IMG/VR virus record: IMGVR_UViG_3300007983_000016
Span: 1 to 26,939 of that record
Direction: 5' to 3' (one strand)
Length of the DNA: 26,939 nucleotides
Source of the DNA: a virus
Taxonomy: Duplodnaviria; Caudoviricetes
The notes beneath the pieces were generated by a model. It was not told where the DNA came from. It did no database searches and saw nothing but the letters and a program-made list of their open reading frames with translations. Shown here one piece after another: positions 686 through 25,175 of this stretch; the first letter of the stretch is position 1, and each line of letters begins with the position of its first letter. A program made the position numbers and the translations under genes.

Positions 686-1075
686 ATGACAAAAGTATAC
701 ATCTTAGAAGACGATCAATCTCGCATAAATATGTTTGACTCGTATCTAACTGCATATATGCACACAGATACGGTAAGTCAGGACTCTTTGGAGCTGTTCC
801 TTTCATATGATCCAGATATTGTTTTTCTTGATCATGATCTTGGTGGACGTACTATGGTAGACTCTGCTGAGGAAAATACCGGTGCGGGATTTGTTCGATT
901 GCTTGTGAAAAACGACCCTAAGATAAAGGAAAGAACCTTTTACGTTCATTCATTTAACCCGAATGGTTCTATGGAAATGGTCCGAACATTGTTAGAAGTG
1001 TACGCTACTGTATACCGTGAACCGTTTGGTTCATATGGGTTTCGAGCAGCATTAGCTGATATCATGGAGTACTGA
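686..1075 (+). CDS. cyclic-phosphate-processing receiver-domain protein (RNA repair associated)
   Basis: Motifs ILEDD..R, FLDHDLG and VHSFNP are characteristic of this receiver-fold family. Confidence 0.75.
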   Translation: MTKVYILEDDQSRINMFDSYLTAYMHTDTVSQDSLELFLSYDPDIVFLDHDLGGRTMVDSAEENTGAGFVRLLVKNDPKIKERTFYVHSFNPNGSMEMVRTLLEVYATVYREPFGSYGFRAALADIMEY

Positions 1076-1575
1076 TGATGAAAGTATTGTTCTTAGATGT
1101 AGACGGAGTTCTCAACTCTCACATGGGCCTAATAAAGCGTGGAGGTCAGAGTCTAATGGACGTGTATGAAGAGCACGTTAACATTCTTGAATGGACACTA
1201 GAACGGTGTAAGGATGATGTGAAAATCGTTGTTAGCTCTACTTGGAGACTTCCATATATAGAGGAGAATGATGTTGAGGGGATCGCTCTTGAGCTTTTTT
1301 CCGATAATACTTTTCTTTTTAACTCAGTAATAGGGATGACTCCACGATTTAATGGAAAAAAACGAGGAGCTGAAATTCATCATTGGGCTTTGGAAAACAG
1401 CCTAAGCTCAAACGATTTTGTTATTTTAGACGATGATAGTGATATGGTGCCTTGTATGGATCGACTAGTGCAGGTTGATAACACGTATGGACTAACCCAC
1501 GTAAGTGCCGTAGAGGTCTTAGAAAAGTTTTATGGAAAAGAGTACACGAAAAAAGTAATATGGGGATTATCATGA
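1075..1575 (+). CDS. HAD phosphatase, Swiss-Army-Knife RNA repair type (HAD_SAK_2-like)
   Basis: Motifs FLDVDGVLN, IVVSSTWR, RGAEI..W and FVILDD. Confidence 0.85.
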   Translation: MMKVLFLDVDGVLNSHMGLIKRGGQSLMDVYEEHVNILEWTLERCKDDVKIVVSSTWRLPYIEENDVEGIALELFSDNTFLFNSVIGMTPRFNGKKRGAEIHHWALENSLSSNDFVILDDDSDMVPCMDRLVQVDNTYGLTHVSAVEVLEKFYGKEYTKKVIWGLS

Positions 1576-2048
1576 AATACATAAACAAGCATCGAATAGG
1601 ATGGTTGGCTCGTTTGTTGCGACTCAAAAATCCCAAGATCAAGATAAAGCTTCGTCCCTCAGACACATGGTCCATTGACTATGCAGTGGCTCCTCTGCTT
1701 CTTGCGCTGATGAAGCAGTTCAAAGCGGCAACTGTATCCATTGCAGCTATTGAAAACGAGGATGCCCCAGAAGAACTACGCTCAGATGAAGCATATTCAA
1801 ACGAACGGTATAACTGGTTCTTAGATGAAGTTATCTGGGCACTGGAACAAACTCTAATAGACTGGGAAGATCAGTACTATACGGGAGACCCTGATATAGA
1901 GTTTCAAGACAATGCAGACGGTACGGTAGAAATAGTCCATAAAGATACTAATTTTAAGGTAGACTATGAGGGGGTAGAAGCTCACCAAAATAGAATGCAG
2001 AACGCAATGATGCTTTTTGGTAAGTACTTCTATACACTATGGTCATGA
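1572..2048 (+). CDS. hypothetical phage protein
   Basis: Long ORF; probable start is the ATGA overlap at 1572. Confidence 0.75.
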   Translation: MKYINKHRIGWLARLLRLKNPKIKIKLRPSDTWSIDYAVAPLLLALMKQFKAATVSIAAIENEDAPEELRSDEAYSNERYNWFLDEVIWALEQTLIDWEDQYYTGDPDIEFQDNADGTVEIVHKDTNFKVDYEGVEAHQNRMQNAMMLFGKYFYTLWS

Positions 2049-2197
2049 TGATGAGTGAGCTGATAACTATCATCTTTGCCTCTTCTTATTTTGTTATAGT
2101 AGCAGTAGGGTTTTGTGTTGCTATTATAAATTCAATACGATCAAGAAGACTATATAAGCTTACACGCAAAATAGCAGAAAAGAGAGGTAACAACTGA
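2045..2197 (+). CDS. small membrane protein (50 aa, not in ORF track)
   Basis: MMMSELITIIFASSYFVIVAVGFCVAIINSIRSRR...; overlaps the flanking genes at both ends. Confidence 0.6.
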   Translation: MMMSELITIIFASSYFVIVAVGFCVAIINSIRSRRLYKLTRKIAEKRGNN

Positions 2198-2388
2198 TGG
2201 AAGTGTTAGTGACAATTCTCTTAATATTAGTAGTTAGCTTGGTACTTCTAACTGTATTAGCAATTCTATTAGAGATAAACTACACTCGACAAAGAGCTGA
2301 GCAAGAAAAGCTTCGTATAGAGCACGAGGCAAGGATGGAAGTTCGTGAAAAAAGAAAGCTATATCCCTATGGACGGAAGAGAAATTAA
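2197..2388 (+). CDS. small membrane-anchored protein
   Basis: N-terminal hydrophobic helix; SD GAGGT. Confidence 0.65.
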   Translation: MEVLVTILLILVVSLVLLTVLAILLEINYTRQRAEQEKLRIEHEARMEVREKRKLYPYGRKRN

Positions 2389-2635
2389 AAAAAGTGATTA
2401 CCCCGAACTTAGTGAAATGTTTGACACTGGGTGGGTCGATAGCAAAGAGTGGGGTAACACTACGGTGAAAGCAACTTTGGATTTTCCCGTAGGAACTGTT
2501 TTCCCCACTTTGGAAAAAGATTTATTTAGTGTGAGAACAAACACCGGATGGAGACGATTTCATAAACGAGCAATACTTCTTTGGATAAAGTTTAACAAAA
2601 TTTCTGAGACAAATATTCGTAAGGAGAGAGTATGA
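2345..2635 (+). CDS. hypothetical protein with tail-collar-like N-terminal motif
   Basis: YIPMDGREIKKSDYPELSEMF resembles the phage tail collar signature (..CDG..l....YPELF). Confidence 0.55.
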   Translation: MKKESYIPMDGREIKKSDYPELSEMFDTGWVDSKEWGNTTVKATLDFPVGTVFPTLEKDLFSVRTNTGWRRFHKRAILLWIKFNKISETNIRKERV

Positions 2636-3390
2636 TTTTAGATACCAAAAAACTGGAAAGTATATGCCTTTATTTTATTTTCATTTCTTTTATAACAATC
2701 GGAATAGTAATGGTAACTCGATATGTTCATCATACAATAGAAACAGCCAAAATTCATAACATTGCCTTACAACTCGAGCTTATAGAGACCAAAAATCTTT
2801 ATGAAGAGGCAATTTCTACTGATGGATATGAAGTGCCCGACAGTGAGCATATTTCTTTTCCATTTTTTCCAGACTCAGGAATATTTGTTACATCGCAATT
2901 TCATCTGCGTAGCAATCCTTTTGAGAAAAATACTGGACCGAACCAATCTGAGGATTTAATTCATAAAGGCATAGATATTGTAAGTACAAAGCAGACGGCG
3001 ATCCGGAGTACTGTCAACGGAATGGTTGTTCGTCATTATCCACCCCCTGATGGTTATTGGCGAGGTTTTGGAGTCTACGGCGGAGTCATTGTTATTGAAG
3101 ATGAATATGGATACTTTCATAAGTTTAGTCATATGTCAGAAACCTATGTTCAATCTATGCCTATATCGGATAGAACACTTGTAATTGCTGGAGAAACCGT
3201 TATTGGTAGACAAGGTAATTCTGGAAGAACCACTGGTTCTCATCTACACTATGAAATTTTTTCTGGTCCTGATGCTGATACTCCAGAAATCTGGTACGAT
3301 CCAATGAAGTATTTTGATATCAGACTCACCGAAAATGGAGAAGTGATGTTTAACACTGACGAAGTTATTTCATTGATCGTCAACGACTAA
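2632..3390 (+). CDS. M23 family peptidase with N-terminal transmembrane helix
   Basis: Zn motifs HKGID and HLHYE, plus GNSGRTTG. Confidence 0.9.
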   Translation: MILDTKKLESICLYFIFISFITIGIVMVTRYVHHTIETAKIHNIALQLELIETKNLYEEAISTDGYEVPDSEHISFPFFPDSGIFVTSQFHLRSNPFEKNTGPNQSEDLIHKGIDIVSTKQTAIRSTVNGMVVRHYPPPDGYWRGFGVYGGVIVIEDEYGYFHKFSHMSETYVQSMPISDRTLVIAGETVIGRQGNSGRTTGSHLHYEIFSGPDADTPEIWYDPMKYFDIRLTENGEVMFNTDEVISLIVND

Positions 3391-3429
3391 ATTTATCAAA
3401 ATCCGAATTCTAGTCAGTATAATAAAAAT

Positions 3430-4551
3430 ATGATGAGTGAAATATCAAACATTGACAAGCTTAGAAACTTTATTCTGTCAAACAATGACTGGGAGAAGAT
3501 TCTTTCTTCTGATCCTTATAATTTGTCCGTTAAAAGAGATCTAGGTTATGTGCTACTTAAGTATAATCAGATCACAAGTGATATGTCTACTGATTACGCG
3601 CGGGCTGCTCGCGGAGTAATTCTGGATGAAGAGAATCAATATTGTATAGTTTGCCGACCTTTTGAAAAGTTTTTCAACTGGGGTGAAAGTCGTGCTGCTG
3701 ATATTGACTGGGACTCCGCTTTTATTCAAGAGAAGATCGATGGATCGATTCTCAAGATGTGGGTTTCTAACAAGCTAGAGCAGTGGGTTATTTCTACTAA
3801 TGGAGTCATAATGGGGTCTAAGGTTCCAGTTATGTTTCCAAAGAACGGAATTAAGACCTTCGGAGATATGGTAGAACAAATTCCTGAACATTTTTGGACT
3901 ACTAATAATTTCGACGAAGAATATACGTACATCTTTGAAATTGTAGGGCCTCAGAATAGAGTCGTAGTTCCCTACGATCACATCAATATGTATTATCTAT
4001 CCTCATTTCATAATGAAAGTGGAGAAGAAAAGAGATTTTCTGAAGAAGATTTGCATTATTTTTCTCGCCCTAAAACTTATAGCTTTTCCTCATTAGAAGA
4101 AACTATAAACTTCACAAAGAGCGAATCCTTTAATGACTACAAAAATGAAGGATTTGTAGTCACAGATAAGTTTAGCAATCGTATAAAGATAAAGACAGAA
4201 GATTATTTGAGAATCCATCGTCTTCGCGGAGAAGCTATTCCTACCGATAAGAAGATACTAGATATAGTTATTCAGGGAGAGACAGAAGAGTTTCTTAGTT
4301 ATTTTCCAGAATATAAAGATCAATTTCTTGAAGTAGAGACCTCACTACAAAACTTTAAGCGAGACCTTCAGAAGCAAAAAATCGACTTGGAATCTAAAAC
4401 GTTCGATAATAGAAAACAAGCAGCAATGTGGATCAAGAATGAAAAAGATCCTAATTTCTTGTTTCAAGCCTATGATGGAAAAGTCGATGATATCGATGAA
4501 TGGGTAAAAGAACAGCGGTTGGAAAATTTGGTAAGAAGGATTCTTTCTTGA
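3430..4551 (+). CDS. RNA ligase, T4 Rnl1-like
   Basis: ARGVI, PFEKFFN, EKIDGS (adenylation Lys), FEIVG, EGFVV and KIK. Confidence 0.88.
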   Translation: MMSEISNIDKLRNFILSNNDWEKILSSDPYNLSVKRDLGYVLLKYNQITSDMSTDYARAARGVILDEENQYCIVCRPFEKFFNWGESRAADIDWDSAFIQEKIDGSILKMWVSNKLEQWVISTNGVIMGSKVPVMFPKNGIKTFGDMVEQIPEHFWTTNNFDEEYTYIFEIVGPQNRVVVPYDHINMYYLSSFHNESGEEKRFSEEDLHYFSRPKTYSFSSLEETINFTKSESFNDYKNEGFVVTDKFSNRIKIKTEDYLRIHRLRGEAIPTDKKILDIVIQGETEEFLSYFPEYKDQFLEVETSLQNFKRDLQKQKIDLESKTFDNRKQAAMWIKNEKDPNFLFQAYDGKVDDIDEWVKEQRLENLVRRILS

Positions 4552-4977: not shown

Positions 4978-6047
4978 ATGAATGAAAAAAACCGAGAAGA
5001 AAGGAGCGTGGGACGAAGAATACTTTTGTCCCACGTCTAGCTTGCGGGGAGTTATTTGCTTAGCTCCCCGCAAGCATTTAAGTTGACCTCGACGGCCACG
5101 GCATAATCACATTGGCAAAACATTTTGAAAGTAAAAGAATATATCTATTTGATGAAATTTTTCCTTGTGATTATGGATTTGAACTAGATGAAGATTTTTA
5201 TGGATACGTTTCAGAATTCGACGAAATCGTAATTGCCGATTTGACTCTTGATCAAAAAAAAGTAAAGAAGTGGATTCGATTGGGAAAGAAAGTACAGATA
5301 TTTGATCATCACTCTGAGACACAATGGATAGAAGAATACGAAGGAAGTGTTTGGGATAATACCCGCTGTGGAACAAAAATCTTTTGGGAAGAATATGTAA
5401 AACCTAAAATAGGTCGATACAAGCCAATTATCGATGAATTTGTAGATTTGGTAAATACGTATGATTTGTGGGATAAGGAAGGACCTCTTTGGGATCAAGC
5501 CGTAAATCTTAATAATGTTCTATATGGTGTCATAGACTATAGCCAAGACGATATCATCGAAAAGCTTACTCCTTTTTATAATTTGATGTCAAAAAAGTTC
5601 TCCAAGTTAGACCACTGGAGATGGACTCAAAAAGAAATAGATGTCATTGAACGAGCTCATCAACGAGAAGAAGAAATGTATACTAAAGCTATGGAGACTA
5701 TTTCGTATAGAGAAGACTCCAAGGGAAAGTATTTTGCGGTCATAATGATTGGATCAAAAGTGTCTTTGGTAGCTTCTAGAATCTTAGAGGAGCAAGACTA
5801 CCTAGACTATCTTATCGTGATCAACACTTATGGAGGAGTTACGGGAAAACTTTCTTTCCGATCGAGTCGAGGATTTATTTGTCATGATATTTGTGTAGCG
5901 AATGGGCATGATGCAGCTGCAGGAGGAAAAATAAGCTCAGATGATGCCAAAGATTTTTGGGAAAATGATGACCTCTGTATTAGGTATAATGATGAATATG
6001 ATGAGTCGAAGCCAAACGATATTTTCAATAGGGTTACTTATTCATGA
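4978..6047 (+). CDS. DHH/DHHA1 phosphoesterase interrupted by a 47-nt non-coding gap (join 4978-5037 + 5085-6047, about 340 aa)
   Basis: Segment 1 ends ILLSHV and segment 2 starts DLDGHG, restoring DHH motif 1 (SHxDxDG). IADL, FDHH and GHDAAAGG lie downstream. Confidence 0.85.
5007..5084 (+). other. candidate ribosomal bypass element: 5' stem-loop, take-off GTC, TAG, 15-bp hairpin, landing GTT
   Basis: Stem 5007-5018/5024-5035; GTC 5035-5037; TAG 5038-5040; hairpin 5040-5054/5061-5075; TAA 5079-5081; GTT 5082-5084. Confidence 0.7.
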
Positions 6048-22421: not shown

Positions 22422-23410
22422 TTAGCTATGAAGAATTAAACAGCATTTATCCTGTATCACTGCTTTTGGAAAATTTAGGCCTACAGAAGGTAGAAGAACG
22501 AGAAAAGTATTATCGTTTTTCGTCGCCTTTTAAGACGGATAAAAATCCATCAATGGTTCTTTACAAAGATAATCTAATGTGTATAGATTTTTCTTCCAGG
22601 TATAGAAACAGTCTTTTTTCGTTTGTGAAGGATTTGACGGGAGAAAGTCTGTATTCTGTTGCTGGATTGGATAAGGGAAAGCTTTATGGAAAGATGTTTG
22701 AGAATTCTTTGCAAACTAGAACAGAGTTTCCAAGCAGAATCAAATCCATCAAGATAAATGGAATGCTGGATAGAGTCGAAAAAAGTGAAGAGGCTCTTTC
22801 GTACTGTCAAAAGAGGAACCTTTTCAAAGACTTTAGAAAAAAGTTCGATATACGATATATGAAATCCGGTAAGATTAATGAAACTTACTTCGGAAATAGA
22901 GTCTGCATTCCTATCATTAGCGGCGGAAAAACTGTTTCTATGGAAGGAAGAGATATTACCGGAAAAGCGAGAGCGAAGGTTCTTTATCCCAAAGGAGCTT
23001 ATGTATCAACACTTTTCAACATCGATAATCTAAATAGAAATGAACCTCTTATTGTTGTAGAAGGAATTATGGATATTCCTAAGATTTGGAAGTTCTTTAC
23101 TACGAATGTTACAACTACCTTCGGAATAATGATTACAACAAAACAGAAGGAGTTGCTTTCTACTTTCGATGATGTTATATTAATGCCCGACGGAGATAAG
23201 GCTGGAGAAGATATGATAGATGAGTTTGATTCTTTCTATGATAGAGAGTTCAAAATCGCTAGACTAGAAGGAAAAGACCCTGGCGATGCGTTCACAAAAG
23301 AAATAGAAAAAGTACTATCAAACGTAAAGTCTTCTACACATTATTTTCTAGAAAAGTCTGAGTTATTTAACTCAGATGAAAAGAAAGAGGTATCTTTGTA
23401 TGACGCATAG
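22418..23410 (+). CDS. dnaG: DNA primase (TOPRIM)
   Basis: NRVCIPI, EGR, VVEGIMD, DGDKAG and KDPGD. Confidence 0.9.
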   Translation: MISYEELNSIYPVSLLLENLGLQKVEEREKYYRFSSPFKTDKNPSMVLYKDNLMCIDFSSRYRNSLFSFVKDLTGESLYSVAGLDKGKLYGKMFENSLQTRTEFPSRIKSIKINGMLDRVEKSEEALSYCQKRNLFKDFRKKFDIRYMKSGKINETYFGNRVCIPIISGGKTVSMEGRDITGKARAKVLYPKGAYVSTLFNIDNLNRNEPLIVVEGIMDIPKIWKFFTTNVTTTFGIMITTKQKELLSTFDDVILMPDGDKAGEDMIDEFDSFYDREFKIARLEGKDPGDAFTKEIEKVLSNVKSSTHYFLEKSELFNSDEKKEVSLYDA

Positions 23411-23588
23411 TTGGATAGTAAATCTAAAAGAAGGACAAAAGCTAGTTGGGTCTATTTTGGTAGATACTGAAATAGGAGAGGATCCTTATCTTAAGGCTGA
23501 CTTTACTGACTACCAAAGAGAAATGATAAAGACAAATAAGTATTCTTTAGAGCTTAGATTGCTAAAGAAAGAATCAAAGGGGAAGTAA
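23400..23588 (+). CDS. hypothetical protein
   Basis: Probable ATG at 23400 after GAGGT; the stop lies inside the 5' end of the tmRNA-like RNA. Confidence 0.55.
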   Translation: MTHSWIVNLKEGQKLVGSILVDTEIGEDPYLKADFTDYQREMIKTNKYSLELRLLKKESKGK

Positions 23589-23683
23589 AGGTTTCGATTA
23601 TGAATTCGTTTGAAGCGACGTAAGGCCCACTGCATCGAAAGCTTAGAGTTCATAAGACGAGGGTTCGACTCCCTCCTTCTCCA
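23579..23683 (+). ncRNA. ssrA: miniature tmRNA-like RNA (tRNA-like domain only, 105 nt)
   Basis: 5' GGGGAAG-TAAAGGTTTCGA and 3' GAC-GAGGG-TTCGACT-CCCTC-CTTCTCC-A; G3:U70 pair; 10-bp P2 helix; no D stem or anticodon arm. Confidence 0.85.
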
Positions 23684-23694
23684 AAGAGGAAGAA

Positions 23695-23745
23695 ATGAGT
23701 AAAACATGGTTTATTTCCGATACACATTTTAGACACAGCAGATGA
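23695..23745 (+). pseudogene. orphaned 5' fragment of metallophosphoesterase (MSKTWFISDTHFRHSR*)
   Basis: AGAGGA SD; the first 14 aa are identical to the reconstructed N-terminus of the gene at 24623. Confidence 0.85.
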
Positions 23746-23769
23746 TATAAATTATCATACTATTAAAGT

Positions 23770-24626
23770 ATGATAATAAAGAAGTGTTTAGTCTGCGGCA
23801 AAGAGTTTGGAACATATCCTTCAATTAATTCTAAGTTTTGTTCTAGAAAATGTTACGGGGTATATTTAAGCGAAACTATTAGAGGTGAAAATAATCCTAA
23901 TTTCGGTAATAAATGGACAAAGGAACAAAAAAGACTCAGTCAAATATTATAAAATCAAAAGTAGATGAAGATTATAGGTATAAAGCAGGAACGGCGAATC
24001 GAGGCAAAAAGTTTTCTAAAGAACGAATAGAAAGAATGCATGGCCACCGCACATTCGAGTCTTATTCGAGAGAACACTCAGATGAATCGAAGAAAAAGAT
24101 AGGAAAGAAGAGTTCTGAAAAATTTACTGAAGAGTATAAGATAGCTTTCAGAAAGAAAATGGAAGACAGTGGCCGTTGGCTTCCTTTAGAAGAAAAAGAA
24201 GACTGTCAAATATATTTCAAAGAAGCGAGCTGGATAGATAAAATGTTCGATCTTGTTGAAGATGGGAGAGAGTTATTGAAAGAATTCGGTGTTTTTCACA
24301 ATACAAAAAATATTGAGGGGGTAGTTAGAGACCATAAGTATGGCAGAGTGTCTGGATTTAAGAATAAAATTTTTCCTGAAATTCTAAGACATCCGGCAAA
24401 CTGCCAAATAATATTACATTCAAAAAATGTAAGTAAAGGACAGCTCAATAGAGGAAGAGGAAGGATCGACTCATCTATCTCTTTGGAGAAACTTTTTGAA
24501 GAAATAAAGAACTATCAAAAACAATGGAAAGAACAAAAATTAGTTTTGGAGTTAATAAAGCGGTATGAAAACGGAGAAAGATGGGAAAGAAAAGGGGGCA
24601 AATGCGTATCAGAGGGCCAAGTATGA
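23770..24626 (+). mobile_element. free-standing HNH homing endonuclease (Zn-ribbon + NUMOD3-like repeats + HNH), frameshifted near 23927-23932
   Basis: CLVCGKEF..FCSRKC, GENNPNFG and HSDESKKKI; HNH-like RDH...HPANCQIILHSKNVSKG. Two overlapping ORFs are joined by a -1 shift at an A6 run. Confidence 0.75.
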
Positions 24627-24662
24627 GTAAGACTTGGTTCATCTCTGATACGCATTAGCTAT
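24601..24662 (+). other. candidate bypass element 2: 22-bp 5' stem-loop, take-off CAT, 7-nt gap TAGCTAT
   Basis: 24601-24614 is perfectly complementary to 24643-24656, and 24615-24622 pairs with 24632-24639. Gap is 24656-24662. Confidence 0.65.
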
Positions 24663-25175
24663 TTTCGTCATGCTAATATTCTAACTTTTGAAAAAGATGA
24701 TGGAAGTCTTCTACGACCTGGATTTAGAGACGTCGATCATATGAACAAGTATATGATCGAAAGATGGAACAGCGTAGTGGCTAAGGATGATAAAATTTAT
24801 CATCTAGGCGATGTTTTAATGGGAACTTCTATCGAAGCCTTTAAAATTTTATCCCGCCTCAATGGAAGAAAAGTTCTAATCAAAGGAAATCATGATACGG
24901 CTAAGATTCATCGATATATGGAATATTTTACCGACGTAAGAAGTGAGATACATAAGAAAACTCCAGCAGGAAAAAAGGTAATTTTTACTCATCGTCCTAT
25001 ATATCTGGCCCAAAACGAAGAAGTTTTCAATGTTCATGGTCATATGCATTATCGTAGTATTCAAGACTCTAGGTATCTGAACATTAGCGTCGAAAGGTTA
25101 GAGGATTATACGCCTATCAGCTGGGAAAAAATCAATGAAATTCTCTTACAAAACAATCGTCTTTTACCAGTATAA
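24623..25175 (+). CDS. calcineurin-like metallophosphoesterase interrupted by a 7-nt gap (join 24623-24655 + 24663-25175, 181 aa)
   Basis: FISDTH|FRHANI, HLGDV, KGNHD, FTHRP and VHGHMH. Confidence 0.85.

Follow-up and report, generated by a model that had tools for sequence, protein, structure and literature searches.

The RNA gene and its genomic setting

The stretch of DNA analysed here (the window) is the whole of a 26.9-kb virus record (G000), which is about 15% complete. PHROGs matches among the 33 ORFs scanned revealed a replication module with polymerase A, topoisomerase II, helicase, clamp loader, primase and ligase, and RNA-repair genes and two tRNAs are also present. The RNA-repair cluster (686-4551, + strand), which adjoins tRNA-Cys, comprises a cyclic-phosphate receiver domain, a HAD phosphatase and a T4-type RNA ligase 1. 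After the primase comes a small RNA gene (Table 1), overlapping the last codons of a 70-aa ORF without family match (23376-23588), the TAA stop of which forms the first three bases of the D-loop. No promoter-like site was found just upstream of this gene; the scan comprised the window and two of the 14 members of the subtype described below, and in these two a sigma-70-like promoter was located 7 and 12 nt upstream.

Table 1. Coordinates of the RNA gene and its parts in the window
Feature	Positions	Strand	Support
Tag-less (TLD-only) tmRNA gene, long subtype	23579..23683	+	RF00023, 53.7 bits; 14 related sequences with covarying stems
Acceptor stem, 5' strand GGGGAAG (G1, G2, G3)	23579..23585	+	Sequence; G3.U70 in 14/14 subtype members
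Stemless D-loop, tmRNA type	23586..23597	+	Sequence and RF00023 match
Helix 2a, 5' strand	23598..23607	+	Watson-Crick pairs over the first 8 positions: own partner 5.6 vs swapped 2.3
Inner stem X, 5' strand	23613..23616	+	24 double-change cells vs 8.0 in shuffles
Conserved inner module: GACG, 15-nt loop (A-rich run and GC at its start), CGAAA	23617..23640	+	Subtype comparison
Mini reading frame, 6 codons then TAG, unsupported as tag	23626..23646	+	Sole candidate obeying the U85/A86/R87 rule
Inner stem X, 3' strand	23641..23644	+	Covariation
Helix 2a, 3' strand	23646..23655	+	RNAalifold and sequence
GAC linker (23656-58) and T arm (23659-75)	23656..23675	+	RF00023, subtype pairing, sequence
Acceptor stem, 3' strand CTTCTCC (23676-82), with U70, and discriminator A73 (23683)	23676..23683	+	Sequence

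The initial annotation had described both tmRNA termini in normal order at this place, and they were confirmed by the sequence and by the RF00023 match; the acceptor stem with G3.U70 and discriminator A, the stemless D-loop, helix 2a, the GAC linker and the T arm were likewise all found where it had put them. Helix 2a consists of 10 bp, nine of them Watson-Crick and one G.U. The interior, where the message would be in a tmRNA, is 38 nt long as described (23608-45), but the simple small hairpin suggested for it gave way to a stem of 4 bp, then an internal loop (GA/AAA) and two C-G pairs, which carry a loop of 15 nt. A pseudoknot in the interior was also considered and dropped, because its first stem is missing in most relatives. 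CCA is not encoded by the gene; the last CCA is made up of C71, C72 and A73 and is followed by AAG.

RF00023 was the best match in Rfam, with both ends aligned (model positions 1-374) above the cut-off of 47 bits (E 1.1e-18) and 300 model positions set against ~35 nt of the window RNA, i.e., the strong terminal matches and large internal gap that had been predicted. The gene order is standard and not circularly permuted, and RF02544 (mitochondrial tmRNA) was not reported for the window in the Rfam search. ARAGORN called no tRNA, tmRNA or tag at 23579-23683, and the traits of a tRNA-Ala (RF00005) were not found, there being no D stem and no tRNA call. The folding energy was within chance (z -1.5; 17 of 200 shuffles equally stable), and support for the RNA therefore comes from the model match and covariation, not from folding energy. 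Judged from its sequence, 23579-23683 is a non-permuted tRNA-like domain of tmRNA, of the tag-less kind and with alanine identity.

A separately assembled contig of the X1 run covers 23000-24200 in a single piece without joint, which speaks against mis-assembly, but since the contig possibly comes from the same sample it does not represent an independent occurrence. Among sequencing runs, no RNA holder turned up, which carries no information on expression. Directly after the RNA gene (23695-23745, +) lies a 16-codon duplicate of the start of a phosphoesterase gene, separated from the full copy by an HNH/NUMOD3 gene, which from the sequence is likely a homing-endonuclease insertion with duplicated start. 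The HNH-like gene (23770-24626, +) is split in two ORFs; as the X1 contig has an extra A after 23926 and a different base at 23770, the split may be an assembly difference.

No cultured close relative was found. The best 15 polymerase matches were all less than 30% identical, and blastn matches to cultured phages were confined to tRNA T arms, with none of 318 records covering 80% of the query. The best primase relative found was G001 (148 kb, 86% complete), with identities of 42% in primase and 46% in polymerase. A TAG once reported within the G001 polymerase match was absent from the direct alignment. G001 contains a member of the same RNA subtype (L354), and neither an RF00023 match over the cut-off nor a full-length tmRNA was found in it; nine other carriers searched with RF00023 gave short matches only. 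A lone deletion amid relatives with full-length tmRNA, which the initial annotation had named as the case that would overturn its reading, is thus not what the closest relative found presents.

Comparison with known systems

In the work of Hudson, Lau and Williams (2014; PMC4131195), 'TLD only' is the entry for mycobacteriophage DS6A, whose gene is 80 nt long (JN698994.1:28478-28557; tmID 11587; Phage__Mycobacterium.9) and unannotated in its record. The statement of the initial annotation that the tmRNAs known from phages exceed the window RNA several-fold in length is therefore not supported. Like the window RNA, the DS6A form is phage-borne and in standard order, with an alanine acceptor, a stemless D-loop, helix 2a and a T arm; in both there is no phage smpB, CCA is not fully encoded and no tag frame is supported. 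The two differ in length (80 vs 105 nt) and in the closure of helix 2a, which in DS6A and other short forms consists of an A-rich loop and a 4-bp hairpin, whereas in the window RNA the helix is 10 bp long and is accompanied by a further covarying stem and by the GACG-loop-CGAAA module. Nawrocki, Petrov and Williams (2025; PMC11915505) relate at second hand that the DS6A form inhibited the cell's own tmRNA in E. coli, and a similar molecule, chargeable or not, was described as a strong inhibitor of tmRNA, perhaps by titrating SmpB (PMC4131195). A paper on the Lacusarx phage repeats the counter-tagging idea (PMC5648845).

The whole tRNA-like domain of full-length tmRNA (RF00023) is shared by the window RNA over the family cut-off, but ~300 model positions, the pseudoknots and a conserved tag frame are lacking. 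Organellar tmRNAs without CDS, i.e., those of jakobid and other mitochondria (RF02544) and the ~65-nt form of Mallomonadaceae plastids, combine the absence of a tag frame with an alanine tRNA-like domain (PMC11915505). However, most of the mitochondrial tmRNAs are permuted, and they belong to the organelle itself and are used with imported SmpB, whereas the window RNA is a phage extra beside the host tmRNA; the standard order of its ends also sets it apart from the permuted and mitochondrial families in general (RF04321, RF01849-51, RF02544). The 2-aa tags in tmRNAs of Fermentibacterota illustrate how nearly completely a tag can be reduced (PMC11915505), but these tmRNAs keep a validated resume codon and stop, and no such conserved frame was found in the window kind.

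Occurrence of tag-less forms

The pattern scans asked for the two tmRNA ends only, except for one that used an interior motif, and were complemented by family searches; one of the end-pattern scans alone was estimated at ~250 stretches in total. Together they gave at least 250 distinct matches in at least 333 loci. After removal, from the 250, of 62 matches within full-length tmRNAs, two tandem tRNAs and 14 matches with a broken or imperfect acceptor, at least 172 distinct tag-less forms of 76-137 nt remained: 80 of up to 82 nt, 14 of 83-99 nt and 78 of 100-137 nt, a mix which reflects the ranges of the scans. Twenty loci checked in Rfam all matched RF00023, 19 of them over the cut-off, and ARAGORN made no call on the first six homologues. 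Only nine 'standard, no CDS' genes, with one phage example named, are given among 97,179 in the curated tmRNA database, whose curators reject deleted tmRNA forms in MAGs (PMC11915505); the kind has been barely studied so far.

Among the 172, a few are probably nothing more than deletions. For example, at L302:3001-3099 an enterobacterial tmRNA is reduced to 99 nt; the MAG has no full-length copy, and assembly or recombination likely caused the deletion. TLD-only forms of 83-85 nt were also observed in Poribacteria assemblies (L288, L290, L292, L307, L320), two of which are single chromosomes; a full-length tmRNA was present too in all four of these genomes searched.

The TLD-only kind as such is already known from DS6A. 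What is new is a subtype of 14 members, 102-127 nt long, in which an inner stem covaries and the inner loop is conserved. The inner-module subtype was not found in print, and no paper describing it or the broad family was found in a literature search in which subscription journals were poorly covered.

Covariation and the conserved inner module

The sequence GACG, 14-16 nt and CGAAA is common to 10 of 84 long forms, the window included, all of which were found by TLD-only patterns. An interior pattern blind to the acceptor matched 23 loci, 16 of them non-members, and yielded four further distinct members. The invariance of GACG and CGAAA partly results from their having been used to define the set. 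RNAalifold on nine members gave 27 consensus pairs, 19 of which showed compensatory change. Among the 14 members, pairing with the own partner exceeded pairing with swapped partners in the acceptor (5.9 vs 4.1), helix 2a (5.6 vs 2.3), the T stem (5.0 vs 3.1) and the inner stem (3.1 vs 1.6). The excess of double changes in inner stem X was equalled in none of 500 shuffles, and its pairing was 85% in register vs 26-42% when slid; such shuffle tests on the subtype are inflated by the relatedness of its members.

The exact loop motif, which was fixed before the metagenome scan, occurred in none of 43 held-out long clusters; a relaxed motif occurred in seven (0.8 expected), and a form chosen afterwards in 21 (4.0 expected). 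Loop lengths within the subtype differ by single bases (14, 15, 16). By eye, the loop resembles the pseudoknot-1 junction of E. coli tmRNA, which is a candidate likeness. The module was not found in any of the full-length tmRNAs searched with a model of it, and an origin of the module in full-length tmRNA was dropped as no source emerged: over 166 sources, the matches of model R2 were limited to the window, G001, a weak one and the duplicate of a member already known. No neighbour gene was shared among 108 of 154 flanking ORFs scanned. Members lie among tRNA genes in eight of 15 loci scanned, one of which repeats another.

Alanine identity

The window RNA has G1-C72, G2-C71, G3.U70 and A73, and this alanine identity set is present in all 14 members, including, for G3.U70, the four acceptor-blind finds. 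Because the first patterns had forced G3.U70, a separate scan blind to the acceptor was used for the short forms. Among 58 distinct short forms from 98 loci, which share one hairpin and may be kin, G3.U70 was found in 57, and G1-C72 and A73 in all 58, while pairs 4-6 of the acceptor vary with compensation. The near invariance of G3.U70 against the variation of pairs 4-6 suggests selection, and from these sequences alanine charging looks to be maintained by it.

Message or no message

In E. coli tmRNA the frame is set by A86, four bases before the resume codon and followed by a purine (PMC2481249), and SmpB contacts the resume-site bases (PMC3929946). The sequence GCG-ACG-TAA, which the initial annotation had tentatively taken as a vestigial mini-tag, could not be upheld: it begins inside the covarying inner stem, has U at the critical A86 position, and its TAA is kept in only four of the 14 members.

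Resume contexts were then compared more generally. With a profile built from 21 real contexts, 12 of 57 long clusters exceeded shuffles, and the window was not among these (P 0.38). A canonical resume context was present in 22 of 43 metagenome-only long clusters vs 10.2 +/- 2.9 in shuffles, a test that was picked after the sequences of the 43 clusters had been viewed. A resume-like context common to the short forms was rejected, as it was not enriched (9/49 vs 5.4 +/- 2.1). Among the long forms with context, an in-frame stop was found in eight of 27 vs 15 and 13 in the other frames (11.5 expected); the best resume frame has a stop in 21 of 57 clusters vs 28 and 26 for the remaining two. The codon usual at the second tag position was not kept (1/43 vs 2.0). 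A context without enrichment of in-frame stops supports no tag. Within the subtype, a stop in one frame occurs in 10 of 14 members vs 5.5 expected (P 0.011 raw, 0.033 for three frames), but after merging kin into 10 groups the excess was 6/10 vs 3.7 (P 0.10). U-A-A at 23621-23 of the window would select that stop-enriched frame. However, the varying loop lengths and the missing stop in this frame of the closest relative, L354, argue against a kept frame; L170 has a perfect resume context and no in-frame stop. Three 124-nt members have a resume-like GCA with a stop nine codons on. As far as these comparisons go, a tag in the long subtype is unsupported.

Partner genes and possible bypass sites

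SmpB was not found in any of 42 viral records (41 carriers and one false-positive contig), including 16 at least 90% complete; the search control was positive in 10 of 10 bacteria, and all viral records, the L074 region aside, had been brought in by RNA patterns. It follows that host SmpB would be used.

Pth2 lies ~520 nt downstream of the RNA in G001 (L354:2087-2506) and is also present in G003 and G011. Over the cut-off it was detected in three of six subtype contigs, one of 25 other carriers and none of 19 non-carriers (Fisher P 0.004), a link which is post hoc, with kinship and genome size uncontrolled; it was absent from G048, a 91%-complete carrier.

Two gene breaks were observed in the window. 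In the DHH phosphoesterase gene (4979-5084, +), TAG at 5038 follows GTC and is itself followed by a 15-bp hairpin (-30 kcal/mol), and the DHH motif resumes in another frame after GTT at 5082, with a gap of 47 nt; the break resembles a gene-60-type translational bypass element. In the metallophosphoesterase gene (24623-24665, +), eleven codons end with TAG at 24656, followed by a 7-nt gap and a change of frame, with CAT before and TAT after the stop; this is a second bypass-like break. It had been supposed that the RNA might protect ribosomes paused at such sites. However, in G001, which carries the RNA too, the DHH gene is continuous; it is the one gene that could be compared, in a reading of 78 of the 148 kb, and such sites may lie elsewhere in G001. 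On the sequences compared, a link between the RNA and the bypass sites is not supported. No direct link of bypassing or of tRNA cleavage with tmRNA was found in the literature, where subscription journals were poorly covered.

Possible function of the RNA

Based on the results of this study, the window RNA is a tag-less tmRNA of the DS6A kind, in a longer subtype, and it would probably compete, charged with alanine, for the SmpB of the host and for stalled ribosomes and so lower degron tagging. This is the most likely reading given the alanine identity that appears to be under selection, the lack of phage SmpB and of a supported tag, and the analogy with DS6A. The decoy against host trans-translation proposed by the initial annotation has a precedent in DS6A; its tie to the bypass sites is not supported. 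In the absence of a promoter-like site just upstream, the RNA would be co-transcribed with the replication genes and processed, i.e., matured by host RNase P and CCA addition. It would then be charged by host AlaRS and bound by host SmpB and EF-Tu, so that SmpB and stalled ribosomes would be drawn off host tmRNA and fewer proteins would receive the destruction tag. It could also enter vacant A sites and pass on its alanine; with no message and stop on offer, the ribosome would have to be freed by drop-off or by a back-up factor. The inner loop would likely serve for binding, perhaps by mimicking the resume-site bases touched by SmpB, and not as a message. If tag-less forms do inhibit tagging, interference with host trans-translation would be a common and overlooked tactic of phages.

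Nevertheless, some observations do not fit this reading well. The inner module, kept by the long subtype and absent in the 80-nt forms, is unaccounted for by the competitor model. The lack of a promoter-like site just upstream and the mild excess of stops in one frame of the subtype also count against it. Since inhibition may be independent of charging (PMC4131195), the strict alanine identity points equally to a productive role on the ribosome. Moreover, in B. subtilis alanine tails act as degrons for ClpXP (PMC8012679), and repeated alanine transfer might therefore not spare proteins, which weakens the argument from benefit.

Rescue of ribosomes without tagging, perhaps by the same chemistry but with a different net effect, is the close rival, although we consider it unlikely to be the main role. 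Together with host SmpB, the RNA would add alanine and free ribosomes by drop-off and peptidyl-tRNA hydrolysis, and reduced host tagging would be a side effect. The alanine identity of the short forms agrees with this, and so do the position of Pth2 in the closest relative and its distribution, within the limits given above and with G048 as the exception, as well as the RNA-repair genes of the window. Previous studies also point in this direction: TLD and SmpB alone transfer alanine on template-free ribosomes in vitro (Shimizu and Ueda 2006, cited in PMC2481249 and PMC3929946), and tag-less mitochondrial tmRNAs are thought to assist with broken mRNAs (PMC11915505). On the other hand, the RNA has no built-in release step, and the only phage form tested, that of DS6A, was reported as an inhibitor. 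A bolder version, which seems rather improbable from the sequence comparisons, is that the 100-127-nt subtype is a working micro-tmRNA, in which the loop would present a resume site to SmpB after translocation, with a short read to a stop or with release aided by phage Pth2. If this were true, the phage would rescue ribosomes without a degron by an RNA one third the size of a typical tagging tmRNA. The long subtype offers a natural series (80, 105 and 124 nt) for dissecting what SmpB contact, resume-site choice and release require beyond the TLD.

Two further roles are quite improbable. The RNA could be a bait for a host protein, from a defence system or a toxin, which recognises the ends of tRNA or tmRNA. 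Alternatively, its inner loop could bind a phage protein, and in either case SmpB would be incidental. The location of members among tRNA genes, the RNA-repair genes and the inner module unmatched in full-length tmRNAs would be in accordance with this, but the tmRNA-type D-loop, helix 2a, GAC linker and alanine identity would be superfluous for a generic bait, and no shared neighbour gene emerged. Similarly improbable is the smallest coding tmRNA, with resumption in the inner loop and a few codons to a stop, by which the chain would be released with a short non-degron tag. The canonical contexts of the long clusters, which the short forms do not share, the frame that U-A-A would set in the window, the three 124-nt members and the natural 2-aa tags (PMC11915505) could be taken in its favour. 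However, stops are not enriched in frame, the loop varies by single bases, L354 and L170 lack the stop, and the best context of the window does not exceed shuffles. In addition, the closed 38-nt loop is probably not large enough to encircle the 30S beak in the manner of the pseudoknot ring.

A non-functional origin as integration-site remnant, decayed full-length tmRNA or mis-assembly is extremely improbable: although deletions like L302 exist, curators reject such forms in MAGs and folding energy alone is not significant, both ends are kept, compensatory changes are frequent, the closest relative has the same form and the X1 contig shows no joint, so that a dead remnant is already largely refuted by covariation. 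An ssrA integration site (attP) was likewise rejected, given that both ends are kept and that an integrase match, found in four of 24 carriers, was not found in G000 (15% complete), G001 or G048.

Several other arrangements were observed among the tag-less forms. In L101 and L102, a short mini-tmRNA adjoins a ROOL RNA (RF03087) and a tRNA. Two mini-tmRNAs occur on one contig in tandem in G020 and far apart in G013 (L368:1001-1167; L036 and L057). Longer tag-less-looking forms are sparse and include L369 and L373 (162 nt) and L370 (140 nt).
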